Virus record (IMG/VR): IMGVR_UViG_2713896788_000008
Strand: one strand, 5' to 3'
DNA length: 8,741 bases
Source: a virus
Lineage: Duplodnaviria; Heunggongvirae; Uroviricota; Caudoviricetes
In this document: in pieces, positions 893-5,377 of the stretch
Layout: the number at the start of each line of letters is the position of its first letter
How positions within the stretch are numbered: the stretch's first letter is position 1
Position numbers and translations under genes: made by a program
The notes under the pieces: generated by a model
What the model saw: only the letters and a program-made list of their open reading frames with translations
What the model was told of the DNA's origin: nothing
Databases searched by the model: none

Positions 893-963
893 TGCACGTT
901 GTGACATGTAGATGATAATTATTATCATTTTGCGGGTCCTTTCCGGCGATCCGACCGGTTACG
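893..963. promoter_or_regulatory. cosQ: Right-end cos segment (cosQ-containing region) of a lambdoid genome
   Basis: gtgacatgtagatgataattattatcattttgcgggtcctttccggcgatccgaccggttacg closely resembles the last ~60 bp of the lambda right end as I recall it (...GGGTCCTTTCCGGTGATCCGACAGGTTACG). The exact cosQ boundaries are not determinable from sequence alone. Confidence 0.6.
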
Positions 964-975
964 GGGCGGCGACCT
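964..975. promoter_or_regulatory. cosN: cosN cohesive-end sequence (12-nt 5' overhang, GGGCGGCGACCT)
   Basis: Exact match to the lambda cohesive end GGGCGGCGACCT, followed by CGCGGGTTTTCGCTATTTATGAAAATTTTCCGG (976-1008), identical to the start of lambda DNA as I recall it. Confidence 0.85.
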
Positions 976-1008
976 CGCGGGTTTTCGCTATTTATGAAAA
1001 TTTTCCGG

Positions 1009-1150
1009 GGAAAATCATGTCGGTACTTCTCGAACATAACTATTTGTTTTTTCTAATATCGAATCCGTAAAGGTCCGACATGAAAACGCCTGAAAAAGTC
1101 ATTTTCGGGCACTTTCATGTCGGACCCTGTATTTGTTGTGAGACTGTTTC
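1009..1150. promoter_or_regulatory. cosB: cosB-like terminase small-subunit binding region with three R elements (R3 1015-1026 direct, R2 1073-1083 inverted, R1 1115-1126 direct) and an AT-rich spacer that is a candidate IHF site
   Basis: tcatgtcggtac (1015-1026), gtccgacatga (1073-1083, exact reverse complement of tcatgtcggac) and tcatgtcggacc (1115-1126). The direct-inverted-direct layout copies lambda's R3-I1-R2-R1, but the motif differs from lambda's CGTTTCC-containing R sites. The R3-R2 spacer 1027-1072 is AT-rich. Confidence 0.7.
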
Positions 1151-1670
1151 ATGAAGGTTAATAAAAAGAAACTTGCCGAAATTTTCAACGTGGATCCGCG
1201 AACGATTGAACGCTGGCAGTCTCAGGGGCTCCCTTGCGTCTCCGGAGGTGGTAAGGGCGTTGAATCTGTATTTGATACCGCCACGGCAATTCAGTGGTAT
1301 GCGCAGAGGGAAGCTGATATCGAAAATGAAAAACTCCGTAAAGAGGTTGAGGATTACAGGGCTGCCAGCGAGGCAGATCTCCAGCCTGGGACTATTGAGT
1401 ACGAATGCCATCGACTTACGCGTGCGCAGGCTGACGCCCAGGAGCTGAAGAATGCCAGAGACTCCGCAGAAGTGGTGGAAACCGCATTCTGTACTTTCGT
1501 GCTGTCACGGATCGCAGGTGAAATTGCCAGTATTCTTGACGGGATCCCTCTCTCAGTACAGCGGCGTTTTCCGGAACTGGAAAACCGACATGTTGATTTC
1601 CTGAAACGGGATATTATCAAAGCCATGAACAAAGCAGCCGCGCTGGATGAACTGATACCGGGGTTGCTGA

Positions 1671-1696
<26 letters not shown>
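1151..1696 (+). CDS. nu1: Terminase small subunit (Nu1-like), 181 aa
   Basis: ORF 1151..1696. From about residue 50 onward (ADIENEKLR...LSEYIEQS) it matches lambda Nu1 as I recall it; the N-terminal winged-HTH region ([36 protein letters not shown]...) is related but clearly divergent. Lies 187 bp downstream of cosN, as in lambda. Overlaps the start of A by 26 bp. Confidence 0.9.

Positions 1697-5377
<3,681 letters not shown>

Follow-up and report, generated by a model that had tools for sequence, protein, structure and literature searches.

A cosB of the probable phage 21 specificity class next to a chimeric small terminase gene in a lambda-like prophage

Which terminase would recognize the array of short repeats that separates cosN from the terminase genes in an otherwise lambda-like head-gene block, and what was exchanged to place it there? 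The stretch of DNA analyzed here (8,741 nucleotides; "the window") has the appearance of the cos region and head genes of a lambda-like prophage, and the repeats in question lie immediately upstream of the gene for the small terminase subunit (TerS, the Nu1 of lambda and the product of gene 1 in phage 21).

The 8-mer CATGTCGG was found at 1016-1023 (plus strand), 1075-1082 (minus strand), and 1116-1123 (plus strand). A chance origin of the repeats was ruled out by the whole-window count (8741 bases), which gave four copies versus 0.43 expected (sd 0.61), with none of the 200 shuffles reaching four; three of the four copies are confined to 108 bp and follow the order plus, minus, plus. The first-pass annotation of this DNA had described three copies of an 11-12 bp motif in a direct–inverted–direct arrangement. 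The presence of the copies and their order stood, but the 11-mer itself did not hold throughout: TCATGTCGGAC is exact at 1115-1125 (plus strand) and 1073-1083 (minus strand), and the copy at 1015-1025, TCATGTCGGTA, shares 9 of its 11 bases, with two mismatches. What the three copies have exactly in common is the 9-mer TCATGTCGG or the 8-mer CATGTCGG. A search for repeats returned two inverted pairs, R3/R2 (1015-1028 with 1070-1083) and an extended R2/R1 pair (1072-1096 with 1102-1126; 25 nt, 88% complementary).

The identity of the array became apparent in the comparison with phage records. In a megablast search with 893-1700, phage 21 (M81255) was aligned with 83.6% identity over window positions 907-1482 without rearrangement, and the lambda-type phages were aligned in two pieces only, skipping cosB and the 5' part of Nu1. 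The cosB segment alone (1009-1135, 127 nt) was 85.8% identical to four phage 21 records (M81255, X02501, M23775, and OL657228). The R4/cosQ, cosN, I2, R3, I1, R2, R1, and I0 elements annotated in M81255 fall onto the window motifs at a constant offset, bp 1 of the mature left end being window position 964 and M81255 position 167. When the window, phage 21, phage IdasGreatGrand, and lambda were aligned together, no indels appeared between the window and phage 21 from the cohesive end to R1. The features of the region are listed below.

933-944, plus strand: cosQ ('R4' in the phage 21 record), GGGTCCTTTCCG, homologous to M81255 136-147 and invariant in 57 21-type cos haplotypes
About 947-993: the cosN region, placed by homology (M81255 150-196, terminase site and left chromosome end)
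964-975, plus strand: the cohesive end GGGCGGCGACCT of 12 nt, part of cosN and the same in lambda and phage 21
993-1007, plus strand: I2, an IHF-type site by homology (M81255 196-210, 'IHF I2 site')
1013-1028, plus strand: the R3 box AAATCATGTCGGTACT (M81255 216-231, 'gp1 of terminase, R3'), bp 50-65 of the mature chromosome
1035-1049, minus strand: I1, an IHF site flanked by R3 and R2 (M81255 238-252, 'IHF I1 site')
1070-1085, minus strand: the R2 box (plus strand AAGGTCCGACATGAAA; M81255 273-288, 'R2'), inverted relative to R3 and R1, with the exact reverse complement of TCATGTCGGAC at 1073-1083; invariant across lineages
1086-1112, no strand: the 27-bp, quasi-palindromic R2-R1 spacer, inverted in comparison with phage 21
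1113-1128, plus strand: the R1 box TTTCATGTCGGACCCT (M81255 316-331, 'R1'), with the exact motif at 1115-1125
1135-1149, plus strand: I0, an IHF-type site by homology (M81255 338-352, 'IHF I0 site'), overlapping the TerS ribosome-binding region
1151-1696, plus strand: the small terminase subunit gene TerS (Nu1/gene 1), 181 codons, full-length match to Pfam Phage_Nu1 (E = 5e-90)
1671-3596, plus strand: the large terminase subunit gene TerL (A), lambda-type, 641 codons, Pfam GpA_ATPase and GpA_nuclease

Between cosN and the TerS gene, whose ATG is at 1151, there are hence three R boxes with the 21-type core, R3 direct, R2 inverted, and R1 direct, spanning bp 50-165 in mature-end coordinates. In both lambda and phage 21, R3 spans bp 50-65 and the order of elements in cosB is R3-I1-R2-R1 with R2 inverted (PMC4669245, PMC9026076); the assignment of the phage 21 boxes rests on the GenBank annotation of M81255 and on the same two papers. 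The IHF consensus WATCAANNNNTTR was matched with one mismatch at 1037-1049 (minus strand), within the mapped I1; matches of this kind can be expected by chance (three found in the whole window, 4.7 expected), and it is the homologous position that carries the weight for a putative I1, at the level of sequence. The I0 stretch (1135-1149) is poorly conserved among lineages.

Phage 21 and the window are alike in the position of cosB relative to cosN, the order R3-I1-R2(inverted)-R1-I0, the R-box cores [A/G]TGTCGG, the placement of the boxes at bp 50-65, 107-122, and 150-165, and the recognition helix of TerS. They differ at R3 bp 54, which is A in the window and G in phage 21, and at about 14% of the cosB bases, a figure that also holds for the spacers, and the 27-bp stretch between R2 and R1 is inverted in the window. 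[quoted passage not shown] With lambda cosB the window shares the architecture and spacing of R3, I1, inverted R2, and R1, and the Phage_Nu1 fold of TerS; the lambda R boxes, however, are of the CGTTTCC type instead of the CATGTCGG type, and the lambda recognition helix, RTIQNWQEQG, differs from that of the window.

The two specificities of lambda and phage 21 discriminate more than 1000-fold, and the contacts and clashes that separate them are made by bp 56 and 59 of R3 and residues 20 and 24 of TerS (PMC4669245). The window has G at bp 56 (1019) and G at bp 59 (1022), as does phage 21; the lambda bases are T and C. On the protein side, residues 20 and 24 are E20 and S24, as in phage 21 (Q20 and E24 in lambda), and the whole recognition helix (residues 17-26) is identical to those of phage 21 gp1 and PDB entry 7LWR. 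The latter corresponds in sequence to residues 1-54 of phage 21 gp1, and the window TerS is identical to it at 48 of the 54 positions; all six differences are outside residues 17-26 and four of them are at positions 30-37. Lys-35, the wing lysine (PMC9026076), is kept as K35. Residues 30-37 (1238-1261) include a GGGKG string in common with lambda (VLRGGGKGNE; CASKGSKGIE in phage 21), and the rest of the domain is 21-type.

To see how regularly boxes and helix go together, 169 loci were classified; they were collected from IMG/VR, around TerS genes related to that of the window or to phage 21 gp1, and from species-representative genomes. Within 150 nt upstream of the gene, all 114 loci with the 21-type helix carried two or three boxes of the form [A/G]TGTCGG (three boxes in 110 loci, two in the remaining four, which have a point change or a truncation). 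No such box was present in the corresponding 150 nt of any of the 55 loci with the lambda-type helix. The upstream regions of these had GTTTCC-type boxes at the same offsets, about -136, -76, and -35, and the pattern holds in the relatives from Kluyvera, Citrobacter, and Buttiauxella with diverged spacers. Conversely, the window has the E20/S24 helix and no GTTTCC box was found upstream in the examined 21-type loci, the window group included. A scan of genome contigs with the 70-aa N-terminal domain gave no further 21-type loci among the matches listed; among the same matches, lambda-type relatives with 61-63% identity from Kluyvera, Citrobacter, Buttiauxella, and another Enterobacteriaceae were used as extra lambda-type controls, and a Planctomycetaceae fragment was discarded as spurious.

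In a set of 57 unique 21-type haplotypes, little or no change was seen in cosQ, cosN, or the cores of the R boxes and of I1, and the spacers varied. The same was seen at a larger distance, as the cores of the R boxes and of I1 show little or no change across three 21-type lineages while the spacers vary, and TGTCGGTACTTCTCG in R3 is invariant across all three. The third and more diverged lineage (L170-L173, from IMG/VR) keeps TGTCGGTACTTCTCG, GGTCCGACATGAAA, and CATGTCGG unchanged. Its cohesive end is GGGCGGCAGCGG in place of GGGCGGCGACCT, lying some 190 nt before the TerS start, and it has a shortened cosQ-like GGGTCCTTCCGG.

Altogether, these comparisons indicate that window 1009-1130 is very probably a cosB of the phage 21 specificity class and the site for the TerS of a lambda-like prophage. 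The first-pass annotation had seen a non-lambda recognition sequence in the lambda-like order R3-IHF-R2(inverted)-R1, and this description agrees with the colinearity with the annotated phage 21 cosB and with the IHF match at I1. It had proposed an alignment to the cosB of phage 21, and the match proved to be base for base, which also means that the R element is not new: it is the long-known phage 21 R sequence, of a system worked out decades ago. The annotation had named two findings that would speak against it, an alignment of the region to lambda cosB and the absence of the motif from related phages with the same Nu1 N-terminus. Neither was obtained, since lambda cosB gave no alignment with the region and the boxes are kept together with the same TerS N-terminus (114 of 114 21-type loci).

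The surroundings of the site are of the other type. Sliding-window identity at 893-932 was 88% to lambda and 60% to phage 21, and at 933-1012, which takes in cosQ, cosN, and I2, it was 92-98% to lambda. Identity to lambda then fell to 52-72% over 993-1292; in the interval 993-1332 it was 75-95% to phage 21 versus 48-78% to lambda. From 1373 to 1690 the window was again mostly 92-100% identical to lambda (85-90% around 1513-1572), and the TerL gene was 91-100% identical in nucleotides to lambda A versus 51-75% to gene 2 of phage 21. A 21-like segment extending from 1009 to about 1350 is therefore bordered by lambda-like DNA on both sides. The observation of the first-pass annotation that the match to lambda runs to about 1008 and is then lost was borne out by these values.

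The cassette exchange postulated in the same place was borne out as well, in a refined form. The flanked 21-like segment agrees with it; the unit is, however, larger than cosB, and its left breakpoint is not necessarily at 1008. The right junction was mapped to about 1335-1372, TerS codons 62-74, in a stretch encoding EIENEKLR, which is conserved between lambda and phage 21. As far as about nt 1350, TerS is of the 21 type and encodes the winged-helix DNA-binding domain, and from about nt 1370 it is of the lambda type and encodes the TerL-binding half; the allocation of DNA binding to the N-terminal half of TerS and of TerL binding to the C-terminal half follows PMC4669245 and PMC9026076. On the left side, the cosQ-cosN-I2 block is at least about 90% identical among the window, lambda, and phage 21, and because of this identity the divergence at 1008 alone does not map a crossover. 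The few diagnostic bases in 944-1007 are mostly lambda-like in the window, and the left junction falls within the cosQ-cosN-I2 block. As judged from these alignments, the exchanged module consists of cosB and roughly the first 62-74 TerS codons, which encode the DNA-binding domain, and not of cosB alone. TerS is a natural 21/lambda chimera in which the lambda-type TerL-binding half matches the lambda-type TerL. The donor of the 21-type part was a diverged relative and not phage 21 itself. In the loci examined, the window-type cosB was accompanied by a lambda-type TerS C-terminus 33 times (31 IMG/VR contigs) and by a 21-type C-terminus once (L169).

The same arrangement was made in the laboratory in the 1980s. 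In lambda-21 hy51, phage 21 contributes cosB-21 and the 5' half of gene 1, for the DNA-binding domain, and lambda the 3' half of Nu1, the fusion standing among lambda head genes; the hybrid is viable, has the packaging specificity of 21, and was used to assign the domains of TerS (Frackman, Siegele and Feiss 1985, via PMC4669245 and PMC9026076). The window differs in being a natural recombinant, and it provides a natural counterpart to the laboratory lambda-21 hybrids by which the TerS domains were first mapped. A lambda-like cos whose R sequences are recognized by a helix-turn-helix at the TerS N-terminus is also found in N15 and the Monarch group (PMC4669245), but their R sequences and helix are unrelated to those of the window, and N15 has a single R3 and a remote rR2 inside the TerS gene in place of the full three boxes.

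Onto the homology, positions, box–helix co-occurrence, conservation, and chimeric junction observed here, the binding, bending, and specificity described in the published work on lambda and phage 21 can be projected by analogy. In the model from that literature, the winged helix-turn-helix of TerS would read R3 (1013-1028), the inverted R2 (1070-1085), and R1 (1113-1128). IHF would bend the DNA at I1 (1035-1049), a TerS dimer would dock on R3 and R2 across the bend, and R1 would act as an accessory site. The bound TerS would then position and anchor TerL so that the adjacent cosN (cohesive end 964-975) is nicked accurately and DNA packaging starts. In the prophage, Sp11 or one nearly identical to it, the 21-type cosB is paired with a 21-type DNA-binding domain of TerS fused in frame to the lambda-type C-terminal half, and the module of packaging specificity thus sits in an otherwise lambda-like block of head genes. 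We infer that this specificity would be identical to that of phage 21.

The spacer between R2 and R1 raised a separate question. Compared with phage 21, the 27 bp (1086-1112) are identical at 17 of 27 positions in direct orientation and at 24 of 27 when inverted, and the inverted figure equals the identity of the flanks. The orientation is fixed in each lineage, with all window-type loci one way and all phage 21-type loci the other; in the third lineage (L170-L173) the spacer has the same type of arm on both sides. Such a flip would fit recombination or template switching in a quasi-palindrome bounded by inverted R boxes, and it suggests that the orientation of the spacer may be irrelevant to the function of cosB. 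Neither the spacer inversion nor the RNA fold of R2/R1 and the fourth copy of CATGTCGG, both taken up below, was found described in the literature read.

These differences bear on how closely the window can be equated with phage 21. It is unlikely, in our judgment, that the cosB of the Sp11 lineage should be set apart as a separate sub-lineage of the 21 class by its flipped spacer and changed TerS residues 30-37; the flip taken alone would show that cosB function is independent of spacer orientation. A stronger version would have the allele specify a third packaging specificity, distinct from those of both lambda and phage 21 and determined jointly by TerS 30-37, by A in place of G at R3 bp 54, and by the flipped spacer. 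Such a view draws on the six of 54 DNA-binding-domain residues that depart from phage 21, four of them at 30-37 and so around Lys-35, on a cosB only about 86% identical, on the inverted R2-R1 spacer, and on the clean separation of the window-type lineage from the phage 21 lineage in 110 loci. If it were true that these changes altered the discrimination against phage 21, a further natural packaging specificity would exist among the lambda-like phages. The parts that make contact are, however, the same in the two phages: recognition helix residues 17-26 are identical, as are the R-box cores including R3 bp 55-63, the stretch contacted in lambda (PMC9026076), and the wing lysine reported there is retained. 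Bp 54 is just outside the contacted stretch, and the A at this position makes R3 more like R2 and R1. A third specificity is accordingly considered very unlikely, and the phage 21 class remains the preferred assignment.

The dyad symmetry of R2/R1 runs 9 bp past the R boxes into the spacer, and an RNA fold of 1072-1126 gave an interrupted stem of 23 bp (-36.4 kcal/mol, z = -5.9 versus shuffles) located 24 nt upstream of the TerS start. The inverted repeat might on these grounds be primarily an RNA hairpin in the late transcript (a stabilizer, a processing site, or a modulator of translation) and not a protein-binding site, the more so as the inversion relative to phage 21 keeps the hairpin potential. 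This reading scarcely deserves credit, as it leaves unexplained both R3, which is outside the hairpin yet equally conserved, and the strict co-occurrence of boxes and TerS helix, and as the three lineages have no clean compensatory changes: G-U pairs of the phage 21 orientation become A-C mismatches in the window, and the third lineage has other mismatches. Rfam returned for the R2/R1 hairpin only generic hairpin matches, at least 60 bits under the thresholds and with no family near them. A terminator was rejected, as only the inner 9-bp stem was flagged and the next eight bases are broken by A, C, and G instead of forming an uninterrupted T run. An RNA or DNA-structure role of the dyad alongside the binding of TerS is a minor possibility. 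The boxes are best taken as TerS sites of a 21-type cosB.

The prophage is a widely sequenced one: positions 893-1700 show 100% identity to Sp11 of E. coli O157:H7 Sakai, to EDL933, and to many other O157:H7 genomes. This cosB is carried by about 10% of complete E. coli genomes; of 5426 searched, 650 had the segment (553 at a coverage of 80% or more), in each case on the chromosome. Sp11 reportedly has a disrupted repressor and integrase and showed neither excision nor replication nor packaging in O157 Sakai, although its terminase and morphogenesis genes are intact (PMC2669165). With Sp11 inactive in Sakai, the site in that host may never be used by its own phage. A 21-type specificity on the lambda-type head genes of an Sp11-type prophage would predict which co-resident prophages or helpers could cut and package here, with a bearing on prophage–prophage interactions and on the mobilization of adjacent DNA in enterohaemorrhagic E. 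coli. The significance of the site is otherwise modest and goes little beyond its correct annotation. A literature search on cosB in O157 prophages returned nothing relevant.

The fourth exact copy of CATGTCGG, at 1585-1592 (minus strand), is located in the lambda-type half of Nu1. Lambda presumably has the same bases at this position, and for this reason the copy is probably fortuitous. Phage 21 gene 1 is apparently without CATGTCGG at the corresponding position. The copy overlaps a one-mismatch match to the IHF consensus at 1586-1598 (minus strand; 1585-1598 overall), and its location is reminiscent of the intragenic rR2 of N15.

Two further observations concern the left part of the window. 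It starts inside pchB (1-299), a transcriptional regulator of the PchABC family that lies just upstream of cos in prophage Sp11. The runs of 50 N at 580-629 and 843-892 are scaffold-gap artefacts with no sequence missing, as seen in the comparison with Sakai Sp11, in which the flanks of the gaps overlap: 56 bp (524-579) recur at 630-685, and the 3 bp TGC (840-842) recur at 893-895. The actual sequence is therefore continuous and shorter than the window.
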